Both the position numbers and the translations under genes were made by a program. DNA of 64,000 nt. It comes from Aulosira sp. ZfuVER01. Lineage in GTDB: Bacteria > Cyanobacteriota > Cyanobacteriia > Cyanobacteriales > Nostocaceae. Numbering within the stretch: the stretch's first letter is position 1; the number at the start of each line of letters is the position of its first letter. The notes under the pieces are model-generated. The model had not been told where the DNA came from and did no database searches. It saw nothing but the letters and a program-made list of their open reading frames with translations. Positions 43,473 through 62,953 of this stretch are shown in pieces. The stretch is taken from positions 42,404 to 106,403 of the forward strand of contig JAVRCV020000043.1 of the NCBI GenBank assembly GCA_034530615.2. Direction: 5' to 3'.

Positions 43473-43509
43473 GGTAATTTCCAATATGGTGATATATAGG
43501 TTGAATATT

Positions 43510-44388: not shown

Positions 44389-44421
44389 AAGTTAGGAAAA
44401 AAATTTGAGGAACTTGTGAGG
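44389..44421 (-). promoter_or_regulatory. Direct-repeat motif plus -10-like hexamer (GerMN cluster)
   Basis: CCTCACAAGTTCCTCAA-N10-TAACTT on the minus strand. Confidence 0.75.
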
Positions 44422-44522
44422 GAAGCTTGATTTGATAAAGATTAATAAAATTTCTTGATAGGAAGATTTTTTACACGTCACCGCGTCATCACGCCACCGC
44501 GTCTTGTTTGTAAAATCCCCAT

Positions 44523-44555
44523 CCTCACAATTTCCTCAACTTATTACTCTATAAA
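44523..44555 (+). promoter_or_regulatory. Direct-repeat motif plus -10-like hexamer (hoxE)
   Basis: CCTCACAATTTCCTCAA-N10-TATAAA. Confidence 0.75.
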
Positions 44556-44630
44556 CTTAAATACAAGGCTGCTCTCAGCCTGAAATTGTGTCGGCAGCTA
44601 TCTCGAACTTCTGATAAAAAGGCTCAAATC

Positions 44631-45170
44631 ATGAATTCAGCATCCGCTGCTCAAACAGACAAAACTACAAAAGCACCTTTAGCAACACACGCCAGCGGTG
44701 ATAAACGCTTTAAGATGCTGGATGCAACTATCAAACGCTACCAGTATCAGCAAGATGCACTGATTGAAGTACTGCATAAAGCGCAAGAACTTTTTGGTTA
44801 CTTAGAAACTGATGTATTATATTACGTTGCCCACAGTCTAAAATTACCGCCCAGCCGAGTTTATGGAGTTGCCACTTTCTACCATCTATTTTCACTAGCA
44901 CCTAGTGGCGCGCATACCTGCGTGGTGTGTACAGGTACAGCCTGTTATGTCAAAGGCGCTCAAGCTATTCTCACAGAAGTAGAACAGTCTGCCCACATCC
45001 ATGCTGGTGAAACTACACCTGATAGTCAACTATCATTACTAACAGCCAGGTGTTTAGGTGCGTGTGGAATTGCACCTGCGGTAGTTTTTGATGGCACAGT
45101 ATTAGGTAATCAAACTGCTGACTCAGTATGCGATCGCATTAAAGGATGGCTTAAAGATGGATCTAGCTGA
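44631..45170 (+). CDS. hoxE: Bidirectional hydrogenase diaphorase subunit HoxE
   Basis: NuoE-like; [10 protein letters not shown] and CLGACG 2Fe-2S ligands. Confidence 0.96.
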
Positions 45171-46776
45171 ATTACAGGAAATCGCCCAAAAAGAACGCGC
45201 TGGCGAAAAACCCGTGCAAATTCGCTGTTGTGTTGCGGCTGGTTGTCTCTCAGCCAATTCCCAAAACGTCAAACAGCGCTTAGAAGCATCTGTCACAGAT
45301 GCAGGGTTAGAAGAACAGGTGCAAGTAACTGGGGTTGGCTGTATGCGCTTGTGCTGTAACGGGCCATTAGTGGAAGTTAAGGAGAAGAACACAGATAGTC
45401 TAGGCACACTTTACGAAAAAGTCACTCCTGAAGATGCACCATCAATTATCGCTGCGCTTGGTGGAGAAGAGACAACAGTTCAAAAAGGCGATTTAGCCCA
45501 TCCATTTTTTACCTACCAAATGCCGATTGTTTTAGAAAACAGTGGCAAAGTCGATCCCGAACGCATTCAATCTTATATTGCAGCTAAAGGTTATCAAGCG
45601 CTTTATCATGTACTGCGGGAAATGACTCCGGCGGAAGTGGTAGATGCAGTAACTCGTAGTGGTTTACGGGGAAGAGGTGGTGCTGGTTATCCTACAGGAG
45701 TGAAATGGGCGACAGTTGCAAAAGCGAAAGGCGATCGCAAATTTGTCATCTGTAACGCCGATGAAGGCGATCCAGGTGCATTTATGGATCGCAGCGTTCT
45801 CGAAAGCGATCCCCATCGAGTTTTAGAAGGAATGGCGATCGCAGCTTATGCTGTCGGTGCTAATCAAGGCTATATCTACATCCGCGCCGAATATCCCGTT
45901 GCTATTAACCGCCTGCAAACTGCTATTCGCCAAGCACAACGTCTCGGCATTTTGGGCAGTCAAATCTTCGACTCCCGTTTTGATTTTAAAATTGATATCC
46001 GCATTGGTGCGGGTGCTTATGTTTGCGGTGAAGAAACTGCACTCATGGCTTCTATTGAAGGTAAACGCGGTCTTCCCGAACCCCGTCCCCCTTATCCTGC
46101 TGAGTCTGGTTTGTGGGGATATCCTACCTTAATTAACAATGTGGAAACCTACGCCAATATTTCACCGATTATTCGCAAAGGTGCTGATTGGTTTGCCAGC
46201 ATTGGGACAGAAAAGAGCAAGGGGACAAAAGTTTTTGCACTTGCAGGTAAAATCCGTAACACAGGTTTAATCGAAGTGCCGATGGGAACCCCATTACACC
46301 GGATTGTCGAAGAAATGGGTGGTGGCGTACCAGATGGCGGTGTAGTCAAAGCAGTACAAACAGGCGGCCCTTCTGGGGGATGTATCCCCGCATCAGCTTT
46401 TGATAGTCCGGTAGATTACGAATCCCTCACGCAACTGGGTTCAATGATGGGTTCTGGCGGCATGATTGTCATGGATGACAGTACCAATATGGTGGATGTC
46501 GCCCGCTTTTTTATGGAATTTTGCATGGATGAATCCTGCGGAAAGTGCATTCCCTGTCGGGTTGGGACTGTGCAATTGCATCAGTTATTGACCAAAATTC
46601 GGTCAGGTAAAGCCTCAATGGCTGACTTGGAACTCCTGGAAGAATTATGTGACATGGTGAAGCATACCAGCTTATGCGGTCTTGGTCAGTCTGCACCCAA
46701 TCCGGTATTTAGTACATTGCGTTATTTCCGAGATGAGTATTTAGCTTTGATTCAAGAAGCCGCCAAATCTAAATAG
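45157..46776 (+). CDS. hoxF: Bidirectional hydrogenase diaphorase subunit HoxF
   Basis: [28 protein letters not shown] motifs; overlaps hoxE. Confidence 0.96.
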
Positions 46777-46936
46777 TCGAGCCAAATGTTGACTTAAATA
46801 TTTCTCAACATTATTGATGCAAGGTTAGCGATCGTACCCAGCAATTAATTGAACAATCAGCCATAAGTAGATAACTAGTACTTCAGTGCAGCTTGAAATT
46901 AAATTAAAGCCACATCCTTGAAATAAGGAGGCGGAA

Positions 46937-47638
46937 ATGATTAATTTTTTTCAGCGCCATAAGCAAAAGTGTAAAAAGTGCAAAAAAGAGTTTAAGAAAG
47001 CACAACTTTCAGAGGGTATTTGTCAAGAATGCCAAAAACTTGGAATACCTGCTAAATCTACATGGCAAAGATGTACTCATTGCAGTATATTCTTTCCTGC
47101 GCTGCAACTTTCTGATACCTTATGTCCAGCATGTCAAAAATTATTTCAGAAAGCAGAAAAATCTGATTTTTATCCACCCATATATGAGCCTTATGGTAAA
47201 GGCTATCCTCATGTTCCTATACAGCCACTGTCAGATTGGGTAGATCTAGGCTGCCAACAACCAAAAAGACATGAGAATAGAGAAAAATGTATTTGTTGTC
47301 AAAAATCATTCTTTGAATGGCAACTTTCGCATGGTTTATGCCCAAATTGCCAAAATATACCACAAGCACAATGTGCTCATTGCGGTAAATGGTTTTTTGA
47401 GTCAGAACTGTCAAATGGTTTCTGTTGCAAGTGTAAATTCAAAAGTTGGAGAAACCGAAGAATTTGCGATCGTTGTCATAAATTGGTTTTCCAGTCAGAA
47501 CTTTCAAACGGTTTATGTTTAAAGTGCCAATCTCAAGACTTAAAAAAGCAAGCAATTTGTGTTGGTTGTCATGAATGGTTTTTGATGTCAGAACTGAGAA
47601 ATGGTTTATGTTTTAAGTGTCAACTCAAAGGATTGTGA
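46937..47638 (+). CDS. Cys-rich protein with six Cx2C-x13-Cx2C repeats
   Basis: AGGAGG RBS; six evenly spaced repeats with (E/Q)LSxGLC core. Confidence 0.8.
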   Translation: MINFFQRHKQKCKKCKKEFKKAQLSEGICQECQKLGIPAKSTWQRCTHCSIFFPALQLSDTLCPACQKLFQKAEKSDFYPPIYEPYGKGYPHVPIQPLSDWVDLGCQQPKRHENREKCICCQKSFFEWQLSHGLCPNCQNIPQAQCAHCGKWFFESELSNGFCCKCKFKSWRNRRICDRCHKLVFQSELSNGLCLKCQSQDLKKQAICVGCHEWFLMSELRNGLCFKCQLKGL

Positions 47639-47769
47639 CCAAAAATAAAAAGTTTGCTGAAATTCTGGTTTTTTATTTCTAATAGCGAGTTGTGAGATTA
47701 ACCAAGATGATAATTATATTTTTTAAATCTATGTAAATCTAATGCGACTAGAAGTATGAGGGGAATTAA

Positions 47770-49395
47770 ATGACTAACTCAAATCAATACGATGCAATTG
47801 TGATTGGTTCTGGTATGGGTGGTTTAACTGTTGCTGCTATCCTCTCAAAATTCAATCACAAAAAAGTTCTGATTTTAGAACAACATTTCGTTATTGGCGG
47901 CTACACCCACGAATTTGAACGCGATCGCAAATTCAAATGGGATGTGGGACTCCATTATGTAGGAAATATGGGACAAGGTGAACTCGGACGGACTGTATTC
48001 GATTACATCACCGATGGCAAATTGCAATGGAGTAAAATGCCAGATCCGTTTGAGAAATTTGTCTATCCTGATTTTACATTTGCCCAATCTTCAGACCCGC
48101 AAAAATTTCAAGCTGACCTGATCGAGATATTTCCAGAGGAACAGACAGCAATTATCAGGTATTTTTCAGATGTGAAAAATACTGCTAAGGTAGGAACTTT
48201 ATCTGGTTTATTAGGTTTTTGGCGTAAATTATTTTTACCCAGAGTCAGCAAAATTTCTCGGTTAACAACTAAAGAATATCTTGACCAGAATTTTGACAAT
48301 CCTACGCTCAAAGCACTGTTAGCTTCTCAATGGGGCGATTATGGTTTACCACCTTCAGAAAGTTCCTTTGTGATTCATGCGATATTAGTTTACCACTATC
48401 TTAGAGGTGGATACTATCCTGTGGGTGGTGCTGCGGAAATTGCCAAAAATATCATGCCTGTAATTGAAAGAAATGGCGGTCAGGCACTTACTCAACGTCA
48501 AGTAACAGAAATTATTATCAAAGACAATGTAGCTAAAGGTGTAAAAGTCCAAAAGACACACCAATCTGATGCGCCAATTGAAGAATTTTATGCGCCGATT
48601 ATTATTTCTGATGCTGGCGCATTTAATACCTACACTAAGTTAATTCCCGCTACAGTCGAAAACAAATTAGTTGCTAGATACTGCAAAGAAATCCAAGAAT
48701 TTCCCAAACCTCACAGCTTATTTACTCTGTATTTAGGATTCAAAGAATCACCTGCAAAGTTGGGGTTTAAAGGTGAAAATTATTGGCTATATTCAGGTTA
48801 CGACCACGATCGCACTTTTAAAGAACAAAGCGCTGCACCTCATCAAGGTATTAAAGCCTGTTATCTCTCCTTTGCTTCCCTCAAAGACTCCACCCAAACA
48901 GCCCACACGGGTCAAATTATTGTCTTTATTGATTACGACTTCTTTACCAAATGGCACAACCAAACTTGGAAGCGAAGAGAACAGGAATATTACAAACTCA
49001 AAGAAACAATTGCACATCATCTTCTCGATTTTGTTGAGACTCACTATCCTGGTTTCCGAGAATTAATTGAATACAGCGAACTTTCTACACCTCTGACTTT
49101 GGAATACTTTGACCAAAGCTACAGAGGAGCTGTTTACGGTATCCCTGCTGTACCAGCCAGATTCAACAAAAAATGGATTAGTCCCAAAACTCCGATTAAA
49201 AACCTCTATCTCACTGGAGCAGATGCAGCATTATTTGGCATCATGGGTGCTTTGATGGGTGGTGTTTCTACAGCCGCAGTGCTTAACGAACCGTTTGGTT
49301 TTTCCAAGTTGATAAGCAATTGTTTCCAAGAAAGCGCTCAAGCTCTTAAGCCTAAGGATAATGTGACGGATAAAGCGATGCAACCAAGTTCATAG
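47770..49395 (+). CDS. FAD-dependent oxidoreductase, phytoene desaturase/retinol saturase family
   Basis: GSGMGG, LEQH..IGG, DVGLHY, STPLT, NLYLTGAD motifs. Confidence 0.88.
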   Translation: MTNSNQYDAIVIGSGMGGLTVAAILSKFNHKKVLILEQHFVIGGYTHEFERDRKFKWDVGLHYVGNMGQGELGRTVFDYITDGKLQWSKMPDPFEKFVYPDFTFAQSSDPQKFQADLIEIFPEEQTAIIRYFSDVKNTAKVGTLSGLLGFWRKLFLPRVSKISRLTTKEYLDQNFDNPTLKALLASQWGDYGLPPSESSFVIHAILVYHYLRGGYYPVGGAAEIAKNIMPVIERNGGQALTQRQVTEIIIKDNVAKGVKVQKTHQSDAPIEEFYAPIIISDAGAFNTYTKLIPATVENKLVARYCKEIQEFPKPHSLFTLYLGFKESPAKLGFKGENYWLYSGYDHDRTFKEQSAAPHQGIKACYLSFASLKDSTQTAHTGQIIVFIDYDFFTKWHNQTWKRREQEYYKLKETIAHHLLDFVETHYPGFRELIEYSELSTPLTLEYFDQSYRGAVYGIPAVPARFNKKWISPKTPIKNLYLTGADAALFGIMGALMGGVSTAAVLNEPFGFSKLISNCFQESAQALKPKDNVTDKAMQPSS

Positions 49396-49454
49396 CAATT
49401 GGGGATTTACATTTGCATAACACCTCTATGGACATCCTTAGGTATTGCTACTGG

Positions 49455-50354
49455 CTACTCGTTAATCCGTAATCCGTAAAAAGCTTTGAGTACCATTGGC
49501 AGACGCCGATGCCAGGATTCTTCTGTGTGATCCCCAATCGGATCTTCATAAGTAAACAGTTCTCGATCCTGCACATAGCCGAACTTTTGATTGAGCAGAA
49601 GATCTCTCATTTCTCGTCCCCTCTTGGTAGCATGTTTCTCAATCCACCAGTTGTGTTCGCCTCCATCCCGCACCAGTCCCCAATCCAGCCATACTCTAGG
49701 TCTGATAGTTTTGTCATACAGGGTTTTAGAGGTTAGCTCGATCAGACTTGAGTTTGCGAGGGAGGCGAACACTCCTAATCCGGTGTCGAGTCCTACCCAA
49801 AAGGATGGGGATAAAGCGGCGACATTCTTAAAGCTATCGGGTTTGCAACAGCCAATATAGAATGCAGCTAGTCCACCGTGGGATGAACCCAGAATTGTAG
49901 TTTCCTGTGCTTGAGGTAGAGTCCGGTAATTGCGATCGATAAAAGGCTTAACATAGTCACTTAGATACTGGGCGTAATCTTTAAGTCCGCAACAGGGACG
50001 GTATAAAACTGGCTCATGGGTATACTCACGATCGCGGTTAAGAGGACAAACCGCTACGACTATCAGCTTGCGGATGGCATTTTCACCATAAAGTGTGCTT
50101 AGTACCTCTGCTGTCCACCAAGATTTGTTCGCTAGTCCTCCTGGGAAGAAGGCAGTATCTCCATCGTTCATGTAAACAACAGGATAATGCTCTCCCACGC
50201 TTTCATACTCCCGTGGCAGAAACACATGGACCTTTCGCGGTGCATCGTTTACCCCTGCTACTTGAAAGCGATCGTAAGTATGAAAGAAACCTGCAAAGTG
50301 ACCCAAATCGTGAAACCAAGCTTTCTGACCTGCTTTCTCAAATGGAATAGCCAT
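49455..50354 (-). CDS. Alpha/beta-hydrolase (putative esterase)
   Basis: YPVVYMNDG, GSSHGG nucleophile elbow, HTEESW. Confidence 0.87.
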   Translation of the reverse strand: MAIPFEKAGQKAWFHDLGHFAGFFHTYDRFQVAGVNDAPRKVHVFLPREYESVGEHYPVVYMNDGDTAFFPGGLANKSWWTAEVLSTLYGENAIRKLIVVAVCPLNRDREYTHEPVLYRPCCGLKDYAQYLSDYVKPFIDRNYRTLPQAQETTILGSSHGGLAAFYIGCCKPDSFKNVAALSPSFWVGLDTGLGVFASLANSSLIELTSKTLYDKTIRPRVWLDWGLVRDGGEHNWWIEKHATKRGREMRDLLLNQKFGYVQDRELFTYEDPIGDHTEESWHRRLPMVLKAFYGLRINE

Positions 50355-50392
50355 AGTTACCCTTTATTTACGTATTCCTGTGCGATCGCCCA

Positions 50393-51466
50393 TTAGCTGG
50401 AACGGTCAGGATCGGCACTGAGGCGTCCCTGATTGACCGTCTTGAGATAATAGCCTGTGGTGGGTCGGTTTTTCAGGTCAAATTTTTGACCATCGCTCGC
50501 TTTCCAGATTTTAAATTTGGAGAAACTGAGCGATTGACCTGGCTCACACCTGTCAGGTGAGCGATCGCCTAAGACAAAGTAGACTGGCCCTTTTCCCATG
50601 ACCTGAGCCATGCCATCGCGATTAACAACCAGCGAAGTGGCTTCTGGAAGGCCAATGCCCAAGACCTCATCTGCCATGCCATCACGGATTTGACGGGCAA
50701 TGAATGCCATCAAGCGACCCATGCGATCGTGTGTATCAAAGTGCGTGTCGATGATTGTGCCCTTGAGAGTTGTCCAGTTGAATAAGTCATTAGTAAAACT
50801 AATATCTCTATAGGGATCGCTTAAAGCATCGTCACTGGTGATGTTCTTTCGTCCTTGTAAACAAGCATTGTAGATAAACTCACTTTGGATCATGGCACCG
50901 GCACTAGTACCACCAATTCCACCCCCACGTGCATAGACTGATTTCACGGCGTCTTCCAGTCCATTACGCTGGAAATTTCGAGCATAGTTGCACTGGTCGC
51001 CTCCAGCAAAGAAAATTACCTCCGCTTGGCGGATGCGCTTGACGACATCTGGCTGATTGGCATCTTCCCGACTGCCAATCACCAAAGTTTCCACGGAATC
51101 GACCCCTTGCATATCCAGAATCGGCTGATTGTAAGCATCATCGTCGCTGGGATCGTCATCAGGCGAGCGAATCACCACCACATCTACTTTAGTGGCGCAA
51201 TTGCTACACCCCCTCACCTGATTAATCATCCACTGAATTGCGGGATCGACATCAGTCCCCCCACCGCCTAAGTCAGAAACCATGCCAGATAGGGGTGGAT
51301 TTACATCAGCAGAATTACCTTTGAGGTATTGCATGACTTTAGCCTCTGCTGATGAGGGAAAGGCTGCGATCGCAACAAGTACAACTAGGACAAACAACCA
51401 AAATGATTTCGCCAAATACTTGAATCGGATTGTGGGGAAATCAGACTCTTTGATGTTCGCACTCAT
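50393..51466 (-). CDS. Secreted cyanophycinase-like S51 peptidase
   Basis: Signal peptide (AEA-K); FFAGGDQ, GGTSAGA, DTHF...RMGRL motifs. Confidence 0.87.
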   Translation of the reverse strand: MSANIKESDFPTIRFKYLAKSFWLFVLVVLVAIAAFPSSAEAKVMQYLKGNSADVNPPLSGMVSDLGGGGTDVDPAIQWMINQVRGCSNCATKVDVVVIRSPDDDPSDDDAYNQPILDMQGVDSVETLVIGSREDANQPDVVKRIRQAEVIFFAGGDQCNYARNFQRNGLEDAVKSVYARGGGIGGTSAGAMIQSEFIYNACLQGRKNITSDDALSDPYRDISFTNDLFNWTTLKGTIIDTHFDTHDRMGRLMAFIARQIRDGMADEVLGIGLPEATSLVVNRDGMAQVMGKGPVYFVLGDRSPDRCEPGQSLSFSKFKIWKASDGQKFDLKNRPTTGYYLKTVNQGRLSADPDRSS

Positions 51467-51478
51467 AGTGCGTTCCTC

Positions 51479-52408
51479 CTAATCTCCAGGTGGAAAATCC
51501 GCCAATTGATTTGCATCCGTAATTACGATTTGAGGCTTTCCATTCGCATTTGCTGGATAAAGACTCGCGGTTCCTGAGACATACACATAACCTCGACCAG
51601 AGTTGGCATAGCGGGTTTCAATCAGCCGCAAGATAGTCTGAGCCGCTACCGAATCCTTATCTGGAATCCACAAATTAAACTTTTGAAATTGTGACCCTGC
51701 ATAGATCAGGGCACCATTTCCTGTCCATTGATTAATACCTGATTGCAGGTCGCAGAACACAGTAACTTCGCTACCCGCTTTCGCAGCTTCCAGCAAACGA
51801 TTGTAGTCTAGACGCACCGATAGCACCCCAGCTTGAATGCCAAAGTACCGATAGTCCTGTACCACACTGTCCCGCAGATGCCACCAAGGAATCAGCGTCG
51901 TGTAGTCCCTGCGATTACCACCCCCATTAGTTGCCGGATTCCAGATCGCCAGTCCTTTCGCTTGAGCATCAGACTCCGCTTCGACAAACTGACGGTGATA
52001 GAGGCGAGAACGACCGTATTTAACAAAGTAGGGACTCCACCCTTCCCGCACGATGCGCACATTGGAATTTTCCTGCTCTGTGGCTTTGTAGACATAACAG
52101 AGCAACCGCCCATAGTTGTCTCGATGTTTAACCAGGCAAACCTGGACAGGGTCATTAGTGTCAAATTCAAGATTCACCCGGACATCACCGATGGGCATCC
52201 CTTGCTCATTTGCGCCAAAATACTGCTTCGCCCATTTTGATGCCAAAATACCAGCATTAGTAACAGGCTTATCGCCTCCATGCTGGCTTTCTTCAGTGTC
52301 AAGACAAACAAACCGAATCGATTCTTGCTCGTTATCCAGGAGTACTTTGATTGTGTCACCATCAATGACTTTGATGAGTTTCAGGTTTTTGATAACTGTG
52401 CCTTTCAT
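51479..52408 (-). CDS. Thermonuclease (SNase) family protein with extra C-terminal domain
   Basis: VIDGDT, IRFVCLDTEE, DNYGRLLCYV, A..KGLAIW motifs. Confidence 0.88.
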   Translation of the reverse strand: MKGTVIKNLKLIKVIDGDTIKVLLDNEQESIRFVCLDTEESQHGGDKPVTNAGILASKWAKQYFGANEQGMPIGDVRVNLEFDTNDPVQVCLVKHRDNYGRLLCYVYKATEQENSNVRIVREGWSPYFVKYGRSRLYHRQFVEAESDAQAKGLAIWNPATNGGGNRRDYTTLIPWWHLRDSVVQDYRYFGIQAGVLSVRLDYNRLLEAAKAGSEVTVFCDLQSGINQWTGNGALIYAGSQFQKFNLWIPDKDSVAAQTILRLIETRYANSGRGYVYVSGTASLYPANANGKPQIVITDANQLADFPPGD

Positions 52409-52664
52409 GCACTCCTCTCTTTGTTCATGAACAATGAAATGAGGGATTAAGATTGGTTGTTATTCTGGGTGTAGCACTAGATTTAATTTGTGTTGGGATC
52501 GCTGTTTCTCTTGTACTTCAGATTTGCGATCGCGTTATTGCACAGTTAATCCGGTCAGTGAAGTTTTAACTCTAGTTTGATTCTGGCGATCGCGTCCTTG
52601 TGAAGGAATAGCTCAGTACGTTCTCCTAATTAGCGATCGCACAGGCTCAACTTAACTTCAAAAC

Positions 52665-54608
52665 TCAGGGATGATTGATCAAAATCAAAAATTCGGATGC
52701 TGGAATCGGTTGGATTTCGACATAGGTAGTCCCATCTTGTTGCTGTACTGATAACGTTGACCCCACTTGGTGAGGGCCTGTGTAATTCGGATTTGCCACT
52801 TCAGCCGTATTCAGAATCACTGTCATAGAACTTCCAATGGGGCTGAGATTGGCATCTACCAAAACTCTCGCTCCCCGCTTATCTATTCCATGACTATTCA
52901 GCACGCAAACCGCCTCTTCATCATCTAAAATTCGTGACCAGCTAATAATTTCTCCACTCCGTCCATGATGACCAAAAGGCAAGTTCAAGAAAGGAATTGC
53001 GATTGGTCGCAAATACTGCCGTCCCAATCGCAGTACCGGAAACTGTTTGCGGATTGCTGCCATTGCTGCAATCCGGACATAGGCAGGGTGATTTGGATCG
53101 AAACAATGAGCACCCGCTGTCCCAAAAGGCCCAAAACCAGGTAAGTCTCGATCGAGGGTTTGCAGTCCCGCTACGCCAGATTGCCGGGGATGTTCAGGCC
53201 CAAACATTGCCTCTCGTAAATAGCGATCTGACCCCTTCCAGTCGGGCAACCACTTCCGTTCCGAAGGTTCTGGCCCTGCTAATGCCAGCTCAGTTCCAGC
53301 GTAAATGCAGGGAACCCCCAATGTGAACAGTTGCAATGCCACTCCCGCAATCACCTGATGATCCGATGCAGCTTCGCTGGAAAAGCGGATTTTTTCACCG
53401 AAAACATGATCGTGATCGTCCAAAATTGAAACATGACGCCGTCCAAGATTCCGGTGCGACCCCATTACAGCGTTCCCTGGATCAAACCCGTTAAAGTAGG
53501 CTCTTGGGTCTATCAGCCCTTTGGCAACCTGGTTAAGATTTCCCCGCATCTCGCCGATATCCAGGGCAGCATTTAAGTTTTGCCCCACTACATCCAGATA
53601 GCGGTTTTCGTTATAGTCTCCGCCTGCTACTTCTCCCACCAAAAAGAAATCACTCTTACCCAAATTGGCCGCAAACTCCTTAATCGTTCCGCAAAAGTTT
53701 CGGGCTTGATCGTAGGTCACATGCTTGAGCGTATCAATCCGAAAGCCATCACAGTCTGTTAGAGCAATCCAGTATTTATAACATCGGGCTAAGTTATCTA
53801 AGAGTTGGGGATAGTCTAATTGGAAATCTCTAAGCGTAATGAAATCTGAACGCCGGAATTCGGCATTGGGATCATCCAAGTCTCCCCGCCCCAAATCTCC
53901 CTTGCCAGCACGAGTATAGCAATCTGCTTCCTGAAGTTCCTTCGGCCACACTCCTTCTGCGCTCGTTTGAGGCCTTCCCCCAATAGATTGTCCACGATCG
54001 CCTAGCCACGAGCCAAACTGATACCAACCAGACGTATAGGGGGGTTCCCATTCTCCCCCAGGCGTATTAGGAGCATAGAACCAGTTAGATCCGGAATGGT
54101 TAAAAATGATATCGAGGATAATGCGTAGCCCCTTTTCGTGGGCTTTATTGACCAGACTGACAAGATCTTGGCGAGTCCCAAAGCGAGGATCGACCTCTAG
54201 AAAATCTTGAATGCCGTAACCATGATAGCTATCCAAGTGTCCCCGTTGCTGAAAAATTGGCCCCACCCAAATCGTCGTTACCCCCAGTTGTTTGAGATAA
54301 TCCAGCTTCGACTCTAATCCTTTGAGCGTCCCACCCTGCCAGCGATCGCTTCCCGACTTTGCCCATTGGTCAAATTGCCAAGACTGCCCATTTTGTAGAT
54401 TAGGGCGGAACAGATTCAGTTGCTGTCGATCCAGCAGAGGACGTGTATTCTCTTTACCATCACTAAAGCGATCGGGTAAGAGAAAATAGAGTACTTCATT
54501 TCTCCAATCCCCAGGGGAGGGAAAGTAATTCTCGCGTCGAGGCAAAGAAAATTCTGTGAGACTATCTGGTCGCCGCTGATTAGCTAGATTCTGTTCGGCA
54601 AATGTCAT
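52665..54608 (-). CDS. GH13 alpha-amylase family glycosidase
   Basis: YFLLPDRFSDG, YHGY, DIIFNH, DGFRIDT, GEV, DDHD motifs. Confidence 0.92.
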   Translation of the reverse strand: MTFAEQNLANQRRPDSLTEFSLPRRENYFPSPGDWRNEVLYFLLPDRFSDGKENTRPLLDRQQLNLFRPNLQNGQSWQFDQWAKSGSDRWQGGTLKGLESKLDYLKQLGVTTIWVGPIFQQRGHLDSYHGYGIQDFLEVDPRFGTRQDLVSLVNKAHEKGLRIILDIIFNHSGSNWFYAPNTPGGEWEPPYTSGWYQFGSWLGDRGQSIGGRPQTSAEGVWPKELQEADCYTRAGKGDLGRGDLDDPNAEFRRSDFITLRDFQLDYPQLLDNLARCYKYWIALTDCDGFRIDTLKHVTYDQARNFCGTIKEFAANLGKSDFFLVGEVAGGDYNENRYLDVVGQNLNAALDIGEMRGNLNQVAKGLIDPRAYFNGFDPGNAVMGSHRNLGRRHVSILDDHDHVFGEKIRFSSEAASDHQVIAGVALQLFTLGVPCIYAGTELALAGPEPSERKWLPDWKGSDRYLREAMFGPEHPRQSGVAGLQTLDRDLPGFGPFGTAGAHCFDPNHPAYVRIAAMAAIRKQFPVLRLGRQYLRPIAIPFLNLPFGHHGRSGEIISWSRILDDEEAVCVLNSHGIDKRGARVLVDANLSPIGSSMTVILNTAEVANPNYTGPHQVGSTLSVQQQDGTTYVEIQPIPASEFLILINHP

Positions 54609-54849
54609 AGGAATTATCTCAAGATTGGTGAATCGGTTTACTCTGTGGAAAGCCTCTCTTTTCCAACGAAGACTACTTTGTTATCCAGTTTTCGTTGGGG
54701 GGCGATCTCAACCTTGTACAGTCGAGCAGTTCAATGCTGTTCCACATCCGGTTTGATGGTAGCGATCGCATCTCAAAATATTCGCAAAAATCAGTTCTAG
54801 GGAACAATACGATGATCTGCGTATAGAATGATGACAACCTTGTAACAAA

Positions 54850-55530
54850 CTATTGTTTAAGTAACCCCAACTTTTCTAGAGCAACCATCACCGCACCTGT
54901 CCGGGTTTGTACACCCAGTTTTTTGTAAAGATTCTCCAGATGTTTTCGCACTGTTCCTTCACAGCAACCCAGCACTCTAGCAATTCCAGCATTGCTTTTA
55001 TCCTTGGTAATCCAAAACAGCACTTCCGCCTCACGTTTGGTGAGTCCTAAAAATTCCAGAGCAGCAATAGAGAAGGATTGCAATTGTTGTTCTTCCAACA
55101 GCAACAGATATTGCTCCTTGATCTGATCGGGAATAAGACGGATGAGCAGTTGTCGTCCTGCTTGCTCTATTTGCAAGGGTAAACAGGGGGATGACACATT
55201 TTCATTGAATGTGAGTTGTGCAATTTGATGCTTGAACCATTGTTGTAAAGCTTCTGGCAATGAGTGTGGGGTATGGGGTAAAGAATACTGGCTCAACAGT
55301 TGTTCTGCCCGTTGAGTCATGAGCTGCACTTGCCCATCGATCGCCAAAAGGATCGCTCCTACACGATCTGAAATCTGCTTGAATTGTGTCAGTATTTGCC
55401 GATCTTGGCTGGTATGGTTATTCTCATTTGTCTGAATCAGTTGTAGACGCAGGAGATTCAGAACACAGCGATCGCACTCTGTGAAATTCAGGCGATCGCT
55501 ACTCAACGAAGTCCTTTGCTTTAACACCAT
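54850..55530 (-). CDS. LuxR-family HTH transcriptional regulator (short N-terminus)
   Basis: LTKREAEVL...SNAGIA...TVRKHLENLYKKLGV; AGGAG RBS before ATG 55530. Confidence 0.87.
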   Translation of the reverse strand: MVLKQRTSLSSDRLNFTECDRCVLNLLRLQLIQTNENNHTSQDRQILTQFKQISDRVGAILLAIDGQVQLMTQRAEQLLSQYSLPHTPHSLPEALQQWFKHQIAQLTFNENVSSPCLPLQIEQAGRQLLIRLIPDQIKEQYLLLLEEQQLQSFSIAALEFLGLTKREAEVLFWITKDKSNAGIARVLGCCEGTVRKHLENLYKKLGVQTRTGAVMVALEKLGLLKQ

Positions 55531-55777
55531 ATACTCCTTCTCTATGCAAAAATCACGCAACCTGCGGCAGGGTCTTTTTGGCATTCAACTTTGATTTTTT
55601 GACCAATCTAGTGCCGATTTGCGGAGCTTAGTTTGACAGCTAACAAGGTTTTCGGGCATTCAAACCGAATTGTTAATCGCTAAGATGCACCAGCCAACAA
55701 AAGATGGCTGGCACAAGTAAGTGGTAAATAACTTTAAGTTGCGAAAATTACAAAGTTATCTAAATACCAATGCAATA

Positions 55778-55930: not shown

Positions 55931-55982
55931 ATGCAATATGAAGATGCATCTCATTAGCCTGTGTCACCAAACTTTGTTTGTG

Positions 55983-56379: not shown

Positions 56380-56412
56380 CCTCACAATCTCCTCAACATT
56401 GTCGTCTAGTCT
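56380..56412 (+). promoter_or_regulatory. Direct-repeat motif plus -10-like hexamer (DUF4342 gene)
   Basis: CCTCACAATCTCCTCAA-N10-TAGTCT. Confidence 0.75.
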
Positions 56413-56443
56413 TTGAATATAACCAACAATGGAGGGTTAGAAG

Positions 56444-56785
56444 ATGAACGCACCGACTGATCGGGCTGAAGAAAACAACGAAAAGATTCAAGGTGAGATA
56501 GTACTTACAGAGCCGAACGCGAAGACTGAGGAAAAGGTTAGTGTGGAAGAATTTAGCATCAATGGTGATGCTCTAGTTACCAAAATTAAGGAACTCATTC
56601 ATCAAGGAAATATTCGCCGCATTATTATCAAAAATCAAGAAGGAGGGACATTGATTGAAATCCCGTTAACTGTGGGAGTGGTTGGCGGTGTCATCAGTGC
56701 AGCGCTATTTCCAGTCATCGCTGCTGTCGGCGTGATTGGCGCGATGGTTGCGCATCTCACCATTGTGGTTGAGAAACGAGATTGA
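56444..56785 (+). CDS. DUF4342 domain protein
   Basis: KIKELIHQGNIRRIIIK, LIEIPLTVG motifs. Confidence 0.87.
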   Translation: MNAPTDRAEENNEKIQGEIVLTEPNAKTEEKVSVEEFSINGDALVTKIKELIHQGNIRRIIIKNQEGGTLIEIPLTVGVVGGVISAALFPVIAAVGVIGAMVAHLTIVVEKRD

Positions 56786-56870
56786 CACTCCTCGACCTAA
56801 AGGTACGAGGATTCTTGGTTCAGCGAGTCCACTTAGCTTAAACCCCTTGCGGTATCTAAACCAGAGGTGG
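56782..56870 (-). mobile_element. IS605/TnpB right-end (omega-RNA scaffold-like) fragment
   Basis: Minus strand reads CCACCTCTGGTTTAGATACCGCAAGGGGTTTAAGCTAAGTGGACTCGCTGAACCAAGAATCCTCGTACCTTTAGGTCGAGGAGTGTCAA: subterminal hairpin plus TCAA end. Confidence 0.7.
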
Positions 56871-56873
56871 AAA

Positions 56874-57704
56874 ATGATTGCAAAAATTTTACTTGGCATT
56901 GGTGTATTGTTCGCGATCGCATTCATCGCTTTAGTTAACAACAGGATAAGCGCTGACCAAGAAGTGAATCGAATTTGGCGATCGCTTGAAGCAGTCCCAG
57001 CAGCAAATTGTTTCACTGAAGACATGGTTGCAGAATTAGCTGCTCCCGTCAGACGCTACTTTGTTCATGCGATTGCACCGGAAACTCCGGTGGCTGATTC
57101 TGTCAGCTTACAAATGGGTGGCAGTTTTAGAATGGCGCAGGATAAACCCTGGATGCCGATGCAGGCAAAAGAAATTATCTCAACATCGAAAGGATTTGTT
57201 TGGAAACCAGTTATCGGTCGCGGTTTGTTGCAATTTGCAGGAGCTGATTACTATACCAACGGATTTGGTCGAATGCGCTTCTTCCTGTGGGGGCTGATTC
57301 CCATCGTCAATGCTCACAGTCCTGATACTGCCCGCGCTAGCATTGGCCGATTTGCTGGAGAATTGATCTGGCTACCTTCTGCTTTGCTACCTCAAAATGG
57401 CGTAAGTTGGCAGGCAATTGATGATAACACTATTCAAGCTAGTCTCAAGATTGATGGTGAGCCTGTAACGCTCACACTCACTATAGATGCTGAGGGTAAA
57501 CTACTGAAGCTGTCTGTGCCACGTTGGGGAGAACACACAGAAGATGGTAGCTTTGCTTACATTCCCTTTGGTGGAGAAGTTCAAGAAGAAAAAACTTTTG
57601 GCGGTTTTACAATTCCCTCCCAAATGTGTGTAGGTTGGTGGTTTGGCACAGACCGTTACTCAGAGTTCTTCTGTGCCACAATTGAGCAAGCTGATTTTCG
57701 GTAA
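56874..57704 (+). CDS. DUF6544/DUF6920-like membrane-anchored protein
   Basis: N-terminal TM; LAAPVRRYF, GELIWLPSALLP motifs. Confidence 0.75.
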   Translation: MIAKILLGIGVLFAIAFIALVNNRISADQEVNRIWRSLEAVPAANCFTEDMVAELAAPVRRYFVHAIAPETPVADSVSLQMGGSFRMAQDKPWMPMQAKEIISTSKGFVWKPVIGRGLLQFAGADYYTNGFGRMRFFLWGLIPIVNAHSPDTARASIGRFAGELIWLPSALLPQNGVSWQAIDDNTIQASLKIDGEPVTLTLTIDAEGKLLKLSVPRWGEHTEDGSFAYIPFGGEVQEEKTFGGFTIPSQMCVGWWFGTDRYSEFFCATIEQADFR

Positions 57705-57836
57705 ATTAAGTTTTTGACTTGTGAATCAAGTTGATTGGGGTAAAAGTAGCGATCGCCAAGTTTATAGTTACTAAATCGGCTTTTTAGCTCTTAAACTCTT
57801 ATTTTCGTCAAATTCCAGAGCTTCATTATTCGTAAT

Positions 57837-57869
57837 CTTCACAAGTTCCTCAAACTCTTAGCCTATAAA
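57837..57869 (+). promoter_or_regulatory. Direct-repeat motif plus -10-like hexamer (hoxU)
   Basis: CTTCACAAGTTCCTCAA-N10-TATAAA. Confidence 0.75.
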
Positions 57870-57932
57870 TCAAGGCGCGGGTGATATAAGAAACTAAGAG
57901 CTAAAGGCGAATTCTGATTGAGGCTAGGAGCA

Positions 57933-58649
57933 ATGTCAGTAAAAACTTTGACAATTAACAACCAACTCATTAGCGCTCGTGAGGAGGAAACTATTCTCGA
58001 AGCGGCGCAGGAGGCGGGAATTCACATTCCGACACTGTGCCATTTAAACGGAGTCTCAGATGTTGGCGCTTGTCGTCTTTGCTTAGTGGAAATTGCTGGC
58101 AGTAATAAACTCCAACCTGCTTGTGTAACTAAGGTAGCTGAAGGGATAGAAGTTAAAACTCATAGCGATCGCCTACAAAAATATCGTCGCACAATTATCG
58201 AAATGCTCTTTGCTGAGGGCAATCACGTTTGTTCTGTCTGCGTAGCCAATGGCAATTGTGAATTGCAAGATTTGGCAATTGAGATGGGCATGGATCACGT
58301 GCGTCTAAATTACCATTTCCCCAACCGCAAAGTCGATGTGTCTCACGATCGCTTTGGGGTTGACCATAACCGTTGTGTTCTTTGTACTCGTTGCATCCGT
58401 GTTTGTGATGAGATTGAAGGCGCACATACTTGGGATATGGCGGGGAGAGGAACAAACTCTCATGTGATTACCGATTTAAATCAACCTTGGGGAACCTCAG
58501 ACACTTGTACTTCTTGCGGTAAGTGCGTTAATGCTTGCCCAACAGGTGCAATTTTTAACCAAGGTTCGACAGTCGGAGAAATGAAACACGATCGCGCTAA
58601 ACTCGACTTCCTAGTTACAGCACGGGAGAAAAAGCAATGGAACCTTTAG
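57933..58649 (+). CDS. hoxU: Bidirectional hydrogenase subunit HoxU
   Basis: [33 protein letters not shown] motifs. Confidence 0.96.
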
Positions 58650-58792
58650 GGAGAGGGTGGGGAGTGTGGGGAGTGTGGGGAGTGTGGGGAGACAAGGAGG
58701 ACAAGGGGGACAAGGGGGACAAGGGGGAGATGAAAGGAAGAAGAACAAATGCCAAATGACCAATGACCAATGACAAATGACCAATGACAAAT
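58650..58792. repeat. Compound STRR array between hoxU and hoxY
   Basis: GGGGAGTGT x3, GGGGGACAA-like x3-4, AATGAC(C/A) x5. Confidence 0.85.
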
Positions 58793-58802
58793 TAGGAATA
58801 TT

Positions 58803-59348
58803 ATGAATCGTTTGAAATTAGCAACAGTGTGGTTAGGTGGTTGTTCTGGCTGTCATATGTCATTTCTGGATTTGGATGAATGGCTGATTGATTTAGCCCA
58901 GCAGGTGGATATAGTTTACACTCCCTTCGCTGATATTAAGGAATATCCACAAGGGGTAGATGTGGTATTAGTTGAAGGTGCGATCGCCAATGAAGAACAT
59001 CTGGAAATGATTCAGACAGTAAGAGAGCGATCGCAAACTTTGATTTCTTTTGGAGATTGTGCTGTCACAGGCAATGTTACCGCTTTACGCAATCCTTTAG
59101 GTAGCGCGGAACCTGTACTTCAGCGTTGTTACATTGAAGCCGCCGATATGTACGGGCAAATTCCCCAAGCACCTGGCATTGTCCCACCGTTATTAGATAC
59201 AGTACAACCAGTGCATAAAGTAGTCGCAGTTGATATTTATTTACCTGGTTGTCCACCCTCAGCAACTCGCATTCGCGCCGTACTAGAGTCATTATTGCGA
59301 GGCGAAAAACCCCAATTAGAAGGACGCGAATTCATCAAGTTTGGCTAA
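58803..59348 (+). CDS. hoxY: Bidirectional hydrogenase small subunit HoxY
   Basis: GCSGCHMS, GDCA, PGCPP motifs. Confidence 0.96.
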   Translation: MNRLKLATVWLGGCSGCHMSFLDLDEWLIDLAQQVDIVYTPFADIKEYPQGVDVVLVEGAIANEEHLEMIQTVRERSQTLISFGDCAVTGNVTALRNPLGSAEPVLQRCYIEAADMYGQIPQAPGIVPPLLDTVQPVHKVVAVDIYLPGCPPSATRIRAVLESLLRGEKPQLEGREFIKFG

Positions 59349-59374
59349 ATATCCTCAATTAGCGAGGTGAACCG

Positions 59375-60754
59375 ATGAATATCAGCAAAATATGGTTTCC
59401 ATCTATAAAAAGAATCTTGTTTCTTTTGGTTTTGCTGTTGTTAGGAATGCTATTAGCTATCTTGCCAGCTTGGTCAACTATTAGTGCAGCGAATAATAAC
59501 CAAAATTTGTACTTAGCAGGCGATAATGTGACGATCGATGCCGATCTGGTAATCGATGATGACGTTTATTTAGTAGGCGATCGCGTCACTATCGATGGTA
59601 CTGTCAAAGGCGATGCTGTGCTGGCTGGTAAACAAATTACCATTAACGGCACAGTTGAGGGAGATGTCATAGCTGCTGGTCAAGCAGTAGTCATTAACGG
59701 TACGGTAGGGGATGACATCCGGATAGCTGGTCAAGTTTTGATTCTCGACAACAAAGCGCGGGTATTAGATGATGTCATAGCAGCTGGTGCAAGCTTAGAA
59801 AATAACGTAGGAAGCGCAGTAGAAGGGAATTTACATTTTTATGGTGCGCAGGCTTTATTGGCTGGTAGCGTCGCCGGAAATATGGTCGGCGCAATGAATT
59901 CCCTCGATTTGAGGGGAACGGTTGGCCAGGATGTGAAAGTAACAGCCCTTGGCGATCCCAATCCTTTACAAGCGCCTTTTATACCTAAATCACCTGTACT
60001 TATTCCCAAAATTCAGCCTGGTTTGACTGTGGGTGATTCTGCCCAAGTAAACGGTAAACTAACTTACAAATCACTTAATAATGGCAATATTAGCCAAAAA
60101 GCACAAATTACTGGTGGTGTAGTTAGAAAAGAATTACCCCCAGATGCTGCACACAGATATGGTACAGCTTGGGAGCAAATGCCTACACAACGTCATTTTG
60201 GTTGGTTTTTACTGAATCGATTACAGCGTTTATTAGCCTTAGTGTTAGTGGGGTGGTTGTTGATGCGGGTGTTACCTAGTTTCATTTCCAGCTTGGCTGT
60301 AACTGTGCAAACAAGAACACTAACAACTTTGGGATGGGGTATTGTTAGCTTTTTAGCAGTTTGGGCAATGATAATTGCGATCGCCATCATCAGCTGCATC
60401 TTAATTTTGATATTCGCATTCACCCTACCTCACTTAATCTTGCCCGTAATTGGGCTGGGAATGCTAGCTAATCTCACCCTGTTAATTGGTTTGCTGATTT
60501 TTGCTAGTTACATACCGCAGATTATCCTCAGTTTCTTAGGCGGAAGATGGCTGTTGCGAACAATCCGACCAAATCAACCATCAGGGCGTTTTCTTTCCCT
60601 CGTCGTCGGTTTAGTAGCTTTAGTAATTCTCACCAGCATACCAATGCTAGGCCCTATTCTCAATTTGATAATCTTCTTCATGGGCTTGGGTGCGTTCTGC
60701 TTGTGGTGGATCAAACGCGATCGCACCCCAGTTAAGCAACTCCAAATGGTTTAG
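59375..60754 (+). CDS. Beta-helix (polymer-forming/bactofilin-like) repeat membrane protein
   Basis: N-terminal signal/TM; repeats of type V.IDGTV.GD...AG; about six C-terminal TMs. Confidence 0.8.
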   Translation: MNISKIWFPSIKRILFLLVLLLLGMLLAILPAWSTISAANNNQNLYLAGDNVTIDADLVIDDDVYLVGDRVTIDGTVKGDAVLAGKQITINGTVEGDVIAAGQAVVINGTVGDDIRIAGQVLILDNKARVLDDVIAAGASLENNVGSAVEGNLHFYGAQALLAGSVAGNMVGAMNSLDLRGTVGQDVKVTALGDPNPLQAPFIPKSPVLIPKIQPGLTVGDSAQVNGKLTYKSLNNGNISQKAQITGGVVRKELPPDAAHRYGTAWEQMPTQRHFGWFLLNRLQRLLALVLVGWLLMRVLPSFISSLAVTVQTRTLTTLGWGIVSFLAVWAMIIAIAIISCILILIFAFTLPHLILPVIGLGMLANLTLLIGLLIFASYIPQIILSFLGGRWLLRTIRPNQPSGRFLSLVVGLVALVILTSIPMLGPILNLIIFFMGLGAFCLWWIKRDRTPVKQLQMV

Positions 60755-60829
60755 TAGTCTACCAGATCCCCAATTTCTCAAAGAAGTCGGGGATCTATGC
60801 ATTCAACTCACAATCTAAAACAAAGTCTT

Positions 60830-62287
60830 ATGTCGCAAAAAATTATCATCGATCCTGTCACCCGCATTGAAGGACACGCCAAAATATCTATTTACTTGGA
60901 TGATAGCGGACAAGTTAGCGATGCTCGGTTTCATGTTACCGAATTTCGCGGATTTGAAAAATTTTGCGAAGGTCGTCCTTTTTGGGAAATGCCAGGAATT
61001 ACCGCGCGGGTTTGTGGTATTTGTCCGGTAAGTCATTTATTAGCTTCAGCGAAAGCAGGCGATCGCATTTTATCTGTAACAATTCCCAAAGCAGCCGAAA
61101 AACTGCGTCGCCTGATGAATTTGGGACAAATTATTCAATCTCATGCACTGAGTTTCTTTCACCTCAGCGCCCCAGATTTACTATTAGGAATGGATAGCGA
61201 TCCGCAAAAACGCAATATATTTGGATTAATTGCAGCCGAACCAGAACTAGCCCGTGGTGGAATTCGCTTGCGTCAATTTGGACAAGAAATTATTGAACAA
61301 TTAGGCGGGCGGAAAATTCACCCATCCTGGGCTGTTCCTGGCGGTGTGCGCGAACCCTTATCAGAGGAAGGACGCACCCACATTAAAAATCGCATTCCCG
61401 AAGTGCGAAATACAATTATTGATGCACTGGGCATATTTAAGCACTTAATTAATGATTATCAAAAAGAAGTGCAAACCTTTGGGAATTTCCCGACATTATT
61501 TATGGGATTAGTCACACCTGATGGTTTGTGGGAAAATTACGACGGACATATACGATTTGTAGATAGTGCAGGTAATATTATTGCCGATAAACTGGAAGCA
61601 ACTAACTATCACGAATTTATTGGTGAAGCAGTTCAACCAGATTCATATTTAAAATCTCCTTACTATCGTCCTTTAGGTTATCCCGACCAAGAAGGACATT
61701 GTAGTTTAGATAGTGGTATCTATCGAGTCGGTCCACTAGCACGGCTAAATGTTTGCAGTCATATCGGCACACCATTAGCTGATGCAGAATTGCGGGAATT
61801 TAGAGATAGAGGCAAAGGCACAGTTTCTTCATCATTTTTCTATCATTACGCTCGATTAATTGAAATTTTGGCATCAATAGAAAGAGTAGAAATTTTATTA
61901 GATGACCCTGATTTATTCTCAACTCGACTGCGTGCTGATGCGGGGATTAATCAATTAGAAGCAGTAGGTGTCAGCGAAGCACCACGGGGTACATTATTTC
62001 ACCATTACAAGGTTGATGAAAACGGCTTAATTTTGAAAGTAAATTTACTCATTGCGACTGGTCAAAATAATTTAGCAATGAATCGCACAGTCGCTCAAAT
62101 TGCCAGACATTTTATTCATGGTTCTGAAATTCCTGAAGGAATGTTAAACCGTGTGGAAGCTGGAATTAGAGCTTTTGACCCTTGTTTAAGTTGTTCGACT
62201 CATGCAGTAGGACAAATGCCATTACATCTTGAATTAGTCGCCGCAGATGGGACTGTTGTTCATGAAATTTGGCGTAATCAAAATTAA
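60830..62287 (+). CDS. hoxH: Bidirectional hydrogenase large subunit HoxH
   Basis: [10 protein letters not shown]1 RVCGIC; L2 DPCLSCSTH followed by a cleavable tail. Confidence 0.97.
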
Positions 62288-62318
62288 GAAAGTATGGGCA
62301 CGAGAATGTTGTGCCCTT

Positions 62319-62468
62319 ATACTAATTCTTTATGAAGCTGCATATAATCCGATCCCCCCTAACCCCCCTTAATGAAGGGGGGAACTGGAAAAATGTCTAT
62401 CAAAGTCCCCCTTTTTAAGGGGGATGTAGGGGGATCGAGATATGTGCAACTTCACATTAAATTGGTAT
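62319..62468. mobile_element. MITE-like element with internal palindromic repeat
   Basis: ATACTAATT...TGAAGCTGCATAT / ATGTGCAACTTCA...AATTGGTAT arms enclosing CCCCCCTT..AAGGGGGG hairpins. Confidence 0.65.
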
Positions 62469-62582
62469 TACGAATAATTTTATGTAGCACAAACATTATT
62501 TTAATTAGTATGAGATTAAGGCGTTTATGATAATAAAAGAAAAAGCCATTTTTTGTTTACCAACAACATCAACAATATTTTT

Positions 62583-62894
62583 ATGAATATCAAAGAAATC
62601 CTACTTCAAGAAATTGAATCATCTCCAGAGTCACTCCTAGAAGAAACTCTTGATTTTCTACGTTTTTTGAAAACTAAGCAAACATCAGTAAAAAAAGATA
62701 TCCATTCTCAAGATATTAAGCCAGAAACAGCAAGTTCCGATACCCTACATCAAGCAGAGGAAAAACCAAAAGACAGTTCTCAACAACCTTACCGTACAGC
62801 TTCCGGTCGCTCCATTCTCAGACACGCAGGTAGTTGGGCAGGTGATGACTTTGATGAGTGTCTTCAGTCTGTTTACGCGACTCGTATTGATTAG
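62583..62894 (+). CDS. DUF2281-like (antitoxin-type) protein
   Basis: LLQEIESSPESLLEETLDFLRFLK and HAGSWAGDDF motifs. Confidence 0.75.
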   Translation: MNIKEILLQEIESSPESLLEETLDFLRFLKTKQTSVKKDIHSQDIKPETASSDTLHQAEEKPKDSSQQPYRTASGRSILRHAGSWAGDDFDECLQSVYATRID

Positions 62895-62920
62895 GAGCGG
62901 TTATCGATCCTCTTGTGCTT

Positions 62921-62953
62921 CCTCACAAGTTCCTCAAGTTTTTTGCCTAACTT
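62921..62953 (+). promoter_or_regulatory. Direct-repeat motif plus -10-like hexamer (hoxW-hypA)
   Basis: CCTCACAAGTTCCTCAA-N10-TAACTT. Confidence 0.75.

Follow-up and report, generated by a model that had tools for sequence, protein, structure and literature searches.

The stretch of DNA analysed here (the window) comprises 64,000 nt of contig JAVRCV020000043.1 (positions 42,404-106,403, forward strand) from the 8.03 Mb genome of Aulosira sp. ZfuVER01, which is designated G000; other G and L designations refer to further genomes and loci. The window contains the NiFe hydrogenase (hox) genes as a split locus, together with five copies of a 17-bp direct repeat with an 11-bp period (the box), each followed by a predicted -10 hexamer. 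A sequence-only reading of this DNA had proposed that these boxes define a hox regulon. When the window was re-checked, the five boxes proved exact in sequence and strand, as did the five hexamers and the 10-nt spacers with their final C, and every box lies between open reading frames (ORFs) and is directed at its downstream gene. The boxes, hexamers and genes are listed below in window positions.

44405..44421, minus strand: box 1, direct repeat with 11-bp period, before the GerMN / 82-aa ORF / DUF442 / P-type ATPase genes
44389..44394, minus strand: predicted -10 hexamer of box 1, 10 nt downstream of the box
44523..44539, plus strand: box 2, before hoxE-hoxF
44550..44555, plus strand: predicted -10 hexamer of box 2
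56380..56396, plus strand: box 3, before DUF4342-DUF6920
56407..56412, plus strand: predicted -10 hexamer of box 3
57837..57853, plus strand: box 4, before hoxU-hoxY-(459 aa)-hoxH
57864..57869, plus strand: predicted -10 hexamer of box 4
62921..62937, plus strand: box 5, before hoxW-hypA
62948..62953, plus strand: predicted -10 hexamer of box 5
39140..42178, minus strand: cation-transporting P-type ATPase
42459..42866, minus strand: DUF442 / phosphatase-like protein, the gene being boxed very often in relatives
43287..43535, minus strand: 82-aa ORF that matches no Pfam family; in relatives, ORFs similar to it come after the box
43510..44283, minus strand: GerMN-domain protein (PF10646, 1.4e-18), given as the longest ORF, its real start being probably later
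44586..45170, plus strand: hoxE (NF005747, above cut-off)
45157..46776, plus strand: hoxF, NuoF-like diaphorase subunit
56444..56785, plus strand: DUF4342 protein
56736..57704, plus strand: DUF6920/DUF6544 protein
57918..58649, plus strand: hoxU (NF005745, above cut-off)
58803..59348, plus strand: hoxY, hydrogenase small subunit
60797..62287, plus strand: hoxH, NiFe hydrogenase large subunit
62981..63424, plus strand: hoxW, hydrogenase maturation protease (TIGR00072)
63417..63758, plus strand: hypA (PF01155)

The first 44 kb of the window had been described as free of the box, and this was borne out, the best match elsewhere in the window having 4 mismatches. In the whole genome, 23 sites lie within one mismatch of the consensus, compared with 0 in each of 3 shuffled sequences, while 8 sites with two mismatches were found against 3-5 in the shuffles. 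The trinucleotide TCA is invariant at positions 3-5 and 14-16 in all 23 sites chosen at one mismatch or less, which confirms the direct repeat with an 11-bp period. Since Nostocales genomes abound in short dispersed repeats, the box might be such a repeat, or a chance match, with no regulatory role. However, the flanks of the boxes share background identity only (mean 0.28, maximum 0.45), and because they are unrelated to each other the box is not a dispersed repeat; the empty shuffles and the targets, which are functionally coherent across cyanobacterial orders, argue in the same direction, and this explanation can be given practically no weight.

The distance between box and hexamer is fixed. 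The dinucleotide TA follows at a spacer of 10 nt in 22 of the 23 sites, for whose choice the -10 played no part, and at each other spacer from 6 to 14 it was found in 0-1 sites, save 6 at spacer 12. In the Pho box of PhoB, half-sites with an 11-bp period end 10 bp above the -10 element and replace the -35 element. The box described here is alike in period, in the 10-bp distance and in the absence of a -35, but its half-site letters and targets are different, and the PhoB-like protein of G000 also occurs in box-negative genomes. The fixed 10-nt spacing and orientation thus support the proposed Pho-box geometry and, with it, a likely activator of the OmpR type. The box lies over the -35 position, where repressors bind too, and RcaC both activates and represses depending on site orientation, so a repressor that blocks this region in oxygen and departs under anoxia could be imagined. 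A steric repressor would need neither a fixed orientation nor a 10-nt distance, yet 22 of the 23 sites have both. No canonical -35 lies under the box, and the authors who mapped hoxW by 5'RACE reported none there either (PMC2670836). Repression of this kind therefore appears improbable.

Sites of other regulators were also considered. As had been claimed for LexA, its strict consensus was found between -150 and +100 of 0/23 sites, and the same holds for the strict NtcA consensus in the same interval; a palindromic box of the CRP/FNR type was rejected, a left CRP half-site being near 1/23 sites only. The 17-bp direct repeat is almost certainly a functional regulon box.

For a wider scan, a position weight matrix was built from the box letters only, with a hit threshold of score >=17. 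It gave 34 hits in the genome, 27 of them with TA, of which 5 are in the window and 22 outside. Boxed targets in G000 are PFOR, PEP synthase with Usp, a second Usp, a phosphoribosyltransferase, HPF-CSD, two radical-SAM genes (one NrdG-like), DUF7219, UPF0182 and a psbA, together with acetate-CoA ligase, Pfk, PTOX and a second P-type ATPase. The identities of these last four were read from translations, and the names acetate-CoA ligase, Pfk and PTOX were backed by family scans of orthologues where these were run. In other cyanobacteria the box precedes genes for PFL, an activase-like radical SAM protein, pyruvate kinase, glycogen phosphorylase, aldolase, Hsp20, CBS and CBS-CP12 proteins, protoglobin, nitroreductase and Host_attach, as well as hypD. 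The boxed gene set is a fermentation and dormancy programme. An anoxic nif2/cnfR2 link was not seen, none of the 12 boxes of G356 being ahead of such a gene.

The boxed psbA (G000 C4:9330-10400, equal to L276:5331-6401; also in L378 and L110) encodes a D1 protein with 67% identity to the three standard copies. It carries E189D, E333A, D342V and A344S, and hence lacks Mn-cluster ligands; we liken it to the 'rogue/sentinel' D1 class. This boxed D1 would link the regulon to a shutdown of water oxidation.

The proposal of a hox regulon was only partly sustained by these results. Every piece of the split hox locus is indeed boxed, but hox forms a minority of the genome-wide regulon. A box devoted to hox would account for five boxes within 19 kb around these genes, and for the position of the candidate regulator gene (below), which is often beside usp-hoxE. 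It is contradicted by the genome scan, with 22 of 27 boxes elsewhere, and by boxes that outlast hox decay at L029 (G001:C98) and L032 (G011:C1), where hoxY is kept, hoxU and hoxH are truncated or absent, and a point change affects the hoxU box. A hox-specific regulon is accordingly very hard to maintain. In L026 and L028, a gene is inserted between hoxE and hoxF, and hoxF has its own box.

A box with TA was found in 33 of 61 relatives and in 44 of 301 genomes of the phylum, and the reversed-pattern control gave 0 in both sets. In a scan of all GTDB genomes, 77 of the 80 named loci among the matches listed were cyanobacterial, from several orders, and 3 were 'uncultured bacterium'.

The window had been said to hold no OmpR-family gene, and all 22 Trans_reg_C matches of the genome do lie off its contig. 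The activator had been left without an identity; the OmpR type remains likely, and one candidate now stands out by tree, helix co-occurrence and linkage. This is P0001 (1,744 aa; G000 C55:28846-34080, minus strand, outside the window), with the domain order REC-wHTH-Hpt-REC-REC-PAS-GAF-PAS-PAS-HisKA-HATPase-REC-REC (REC, receiver; wHTH, winged helix-turn-helix; Hpt, histidine phosphotransfer). Its winged helix spans about residues 125-225 and its last PAS about residues 1095-1220. The REC-wHTH-Hpt-REC layout is of the RcaC/RfpB type, and the next gene encodes a 131-aa receiver-like protein; a receiver-like ORF of 126-148 aa, read from translations, adjoins the regulator gene in most of 26 loci. 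There are at least 345 fused homologues; of the 120 listed, nearly all that bear a name come from Nostocales. Among these listed matches, the Hpt motif is present in 116/120 and the kinase H-box in 120/120. Other PAS and GAF domains vary between orthologues, and GAF is missing from several. An unfused form was seen in L274 (G132) and L038 (G030), where the regulator ends in GGDEF and a haem-PAS kinase is the next gene; the kinase of G148 has N-terminal CBS domains. The regulator is likewise unfused in G317, G296 and G052.

A tree was made from 136 REC-wHTH sequences of nine genomes and three loci, with five listed matches without a locus. One of its clades, to which P0001 belongs, occurs in box-positive genomes and is absent from the four box-negative genomes G021, G032, G064 and G118. 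The recognition helix was then scored in 160 of the 178 photosynthetic genomes with box counts, the 18 left out being box-free. The exact helix pattern was found in 47/50 genomes with at least three boxes, 4/8 with two, 5/12 with one and 1/90 with none. In G085, G194, G178 and G091, the protein belongs to the core clade by hidden Markov model (HMM) and tree and its helix has one substitution, whereas G224 and G204 have a near-identical helix outside the core clade. Among the HMM hits from 80 box-poor genomes, the 29 best all lie outside the core clade, although one of them (G045) has a similar helix.

Linkage was also observed. In 13 of 26 loci, about half of which had been picked for a proximity already seen, no more than about 4 kb separates the regulator gene from a box, and it is near a box in G085, G178, G112, G333, G097, G088, G019, G348 and G350 as well. 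It is typically divergent from box-usp-hoxE-hoxF, as in G124, G198, G158, G152 and G094. We consider it very likely that a regulator of the P0001 type binds the box and, with equal confidence, we predict that it acts as an activator.

The box might instead be read by another factor, such as a universal OmpR protein (for example RpaA), a paralogue or an alternative sigma factor, the candidate being merely a linked gene or a target. RpaA controls hox in PCC 7942 (PMC13421787), the candidate gene is itself unboxed in G000, and G150 has boxes without the candidate. However, RpaA, RpaB, SphR and NblR orthologues with the same helices also occur in box-negative genomes, and RpaA orthologues specifically in G021, G032, G064 and G118, so an RpaA regulon was rejected. 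The candidate helix is found in 42/45 box-rich genomes against 17/45 for the nearest, and only, rival paralogue, which served as the control. G124 has 4 boxes, and of its 10 OmpR-type genes it is the candidate that is divergent from box-usp-hoxEF. A sigma factor, moreover, would have no need of a pair of half-sites spaced by one turn. Another reader of the box thus seems unlikely. Further candidates were dropped: Rre3-like, SrrA-like and NrrA-like proteins (names which we assigned provisionally), the presence of which does not track the box; an RcaC-like paralogue, found in 20/80 genomes; and the LuxR-type gene of the window (54850-55584), which is missing from the matching G003 locus.

The last PAS domain of P0001, directly before the kinase, points to its possible signal. 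The best hits in PDB were FixL (8e-19) and DosP (6e-15), and the 13 best of the 16 PDB sequences matching this domain are of the FixL or DosP type. The PAS His aligns with the proximal haem ligand His of FixL, which also has a distal Arg. His1155, Met1172 and Arg1175 are invariant in the 120/120 homologues among the matches listed; in two genomes the residue three positions after the haem His is substituted and the His itself is kept. It is the only PAS of the FixL/DosP haem type among the ORFs of G000, and a haem-type PAS was found in the fusion or in an adjacent kinase at 19 of 26 regulator loci. From sequence, this PAS is predicted to bind haem with oxygen as its signal, and oxygen sensed through haem is probably the main input.

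The reading which we favour, with fair though not full confidence, is that the box is bound and activated by an RcaC-type wHTH regulator fused to a kinase that would sense low oxygen via a FixL/DosP-like haem PAS. The loss of oxygen from the PAS haem would turn on the adjacent kinase, and the phosphate would pass from His to an Asp of the C-terminal or stand-alone receiver, then to the Hpt His and finally to the N-terminal receiver. Two wHTH domains would then occupy one half-site each, in head-to-tail order across the -35 position, and bring in a sigma70-type polymerase, as with PhoB. The cell would thereby induce PFOR or PFL, acetate-CoA ligase, Pfk, PEP synthase and Hox with its maturases, and in addition PTOX, Usp, Hsp20, HPF and the D1 without Mn ligands.

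Published expression data are relevant to this reading. One hour after cultures of Nostoc PCC 7120 grown with 3% CO2 were washed into fresh medium under air, six entries in the main-text tables, drawn from 211 down-regulated genes, fell 42- to 146-fold, namely the hox clusters, nifJ, ppsA, ptox, the LysR gene all4986 and an Fe(II) transport operon, and the next-strongest entry fell 5.8-fold (PMC7699953). Orthologues of all six entries are boxed in G346, the hox gene order of which equals that published for PCC 7120. The Feo box of G346 (score 28.7) was looked for after the expression result was known. The LysR gene was matched to all4986 by family and by its sucrose-synthase neighbour, presumably shared by all4986. 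Start-site data can be compared in the same manner. The hoxW start was mapped by 5'RACE 70 bp upstream, with a -10 present and 'no -35 box' (PMC2670836), and that of alr0750, printed as alr0705, at -64 (PMC4183373). On the orthologous G346 promoters, where the ATG is at 78 and 73 nt, these starts fall 8 and 9 nt past the hexamers, against the roughly 7 nt expected for promoters of this type. The starts reportedly given by Sjoholm in 2007, at 66 bp for alr0750 and 57 bp for hoxU, would each fall 7 nt past. Three RNA data sets compared with the window had just 5-6% of the sampled words in common with it.

Several points weigh against the proposed oxygen-responsive regulator. As to the promoters, the full TAnnnT hexamer is present in only 14 of the 23 sites, the hexamer behind the Feo box of G346 does not begin with TA, two letters are swapped between the hoxW hexamer as published and its G346 counterpart, and the box does not account for a second hoxW start (-44). 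As to the protein, the helix is common to G148/G315 and to G204/G339 although these lie outside the core clade; the co-occurrence counts overstate independence because the genomes are kin; the regulator gene of G000 is unlinked to boxes and has none upstream; no regulator orthologue was found in the 60 contigs of G150, with its 3-4 good boxes; G038 has the regulator and no box; and six one-box genomes are without the regulator. As to the signal, no haem-type PAS was found in the stretch examined at 7 of the 26 regulator loci, including those of the box-rich G317 and G296. The 'on' cultures of the expression study were illuminated and shaken in air with 3% CO2, and its authors invoke C/N balance (PMC7699953); since oxygen was unreported, low oxygen is not the obvious trigger there. 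Planktonic-size genomes related to G150 keep single boxes without a regulator, which are possibly relics after its loss.

The same box and regulator could respond to an input other than oxygen: the carbon or redox state, binding of CO or NO to the haem, or whatever the GAF and other PAS domains detect. Expression of the regulon was high in the illuminated cultures with 3% CO2 and had dropped an hour after the transfer to fresh medium in air (PMC7699953), nifJ and the hox clusters shift together on Ca2+ changes (PMC4915528), and the differing extra PAS/GAF domains and the seven loci mentioned above fit as well. On the other hand, the haem-type PAS is the input kept beside the kinase, with invariant His, Met and Arg, and the targets are oxygen-sensitive or hypoxia-type (PFL with activase, PFOR, Feo, Usp). 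Moreover, hox is induced microaerobically in heterocystous strains (PMC2674450), and the chlL-chlN operon also fell 3.3-fold in the shift to air (PMC7699953), which would fit lower oxygen before it. We regard a non-oxygen input as possible, though rather doubtful.

The candidate combines traits of several known systems. With RcaE-RcaF-RcaC and RfpA-RfpC-RfpB it shares the REC-wHTH-Hpt-REC output and a small stand-alone receiver, but it has a haem-type PAS beside the kinase and fermentation targets, and sensor and regulator form one polypeptide in most Nostocaceae. The L box of RcaC is reportedly likewise a 7-bp direct repeat with a 4-bp spacer. The candidate differs in recognition helix and clade from the protein of G000 which we take to be the probable RcaC orthologue. 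With FixL-FixJ-FixK and DosP it shares a haem-type PAS directly before HisKA, the proximal His and distal Arg, and low-oxygen-type targets; those outputs are the NarL-type FixJ and the CRP-type FixK, whereas here an OmpR winged helix on a direct repeat would end a multistep relay in one chain. The DosR regulon of Mycobacterium includes several Usp, Hsp20, an Acg-type nitroreductase, Pfk, a P-type ATPase, a phosphoribosyltransferase and a hibernation factor, and this content is shared with the boxed set, with no homology implied. DosS and DosT carry their haem in GAF domains, and DosR is a NarL-type protein with a palindromic site; here a direct repeat and a Trans_reg_C domain stand instead.

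LexA and AbrB-like proteins bind hox promoters but are not known to sense oxygen. Binding of LexA to the PCC 7120 hox promoters has been published (PMC3091678), and LexA, CyAbrB1/2 with SigE, RpaA and ChlR act on hox/nifJ or on low-oxygen genes according to a 2026 review of cyanobacterial redox regulators, passages of which mention neither the box nor this system for any of them (PMC13421787). In PCC 7120, a 1,627-aa orthologue (BAB74127.1) belongs to the cluster of a close homologue of P0001. We assume that it is Alr2428, whose PAS is said to bind haem according to a report of 2004. Alr2428 has been described as a hybrid sensor-regulator with an OmpR-like part, which fits BAB74127.1, and passages of the one paper that names it yielded neither a target nor a box or regulon (PMC12267927). 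In the literature searched, which left most subscription journals and RegPrecise outside, neither the box nor the regulon is described, and 13-letter pieces of the box matched only unrelated papers on eukaryotes and viruses. Two-component haem sensing, Pho-box activation and the RcaC architecture are known; the combination, the box and the regulon are new.

On balance we lean, if only by a little, towards a broader view, in which a master regulator devoted to oxygen sensing exists in heterocystous cyanobacteria and in many others. One chain would combine a FixL-type haem sensor, a four-step phosphorelay and a DNA-binding output. Its programme of dormancy and fermentation would resemble that of DosR and include Hox as well as a D1 that would switch water splitting off, and its chassis serves light colour in the paralogues RcaC and RfpB. 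If true, this would be the long-missing switch for hydrogen production and fermentation in filamentous cyanobacteria, a decades-old question, and would place a haem oxygen sensor inside an oxygen-producing cell. It would also account for the block of genes co-regulated 40- to 150-fold in the published data, and biohydrogen work would gain both a switch and a portable promoter. The analysis yields a named gene, a predicted site, a target list and a candidate sensing residue for testing.

Some boxes have less familiar surroundings. Two near-perfect boxes of G000 with TA (C32:192995 and C41:262873) have no ORF within 600 nt downstream, and small RNAs or small proteins are possible there. A KaiB-like ORF, named from its translation (G000 C1:76065-76424, L278), lies about 480 nt past a perfect box, after the HPF-cold-shock fusion gene, and an 83-aa zinc-ribbon ORF without a Pfam match (L279:2743-2994, G000 C62) is boxed and divergent from ppsA in many genomes. 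In L374 (G346) and L394 (G356), a boxed LysR (CbbR-like) gene lies upstream of sucrose synthase and could act as a second regulatory tier; in several Nostoc loci, the boxed DUF442 gene is also followed by sucrose synthase-like genes.

In L026, L028, L029 and L033 the box precedes the DUF442 gene with no GerMN ORF >=110 aa in between, and GerMN is a variable passenger; a GerMN-linked two-component system was sought and none was found in 17 loci. The block between hoxF and DUF4342 (window 46937-55584) encodes a Cys-rich 233-aa ORF without a Pfam match, an FAD oxidoreductase, an esterase, an S51 peptidase, a nuclease, an alpha-amylase and the LuxR-type gene, and is mostly missing in the matching G003 locus. 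Between hoxY and hoxH lies a 459-aa bactofilin-like membrane protein (window 59375-60754), where relatives have different genes or none. A short tandem-like repeat is present at the contig end (window about 63661-63990), and the minus-strand ORFs there are repetitive.

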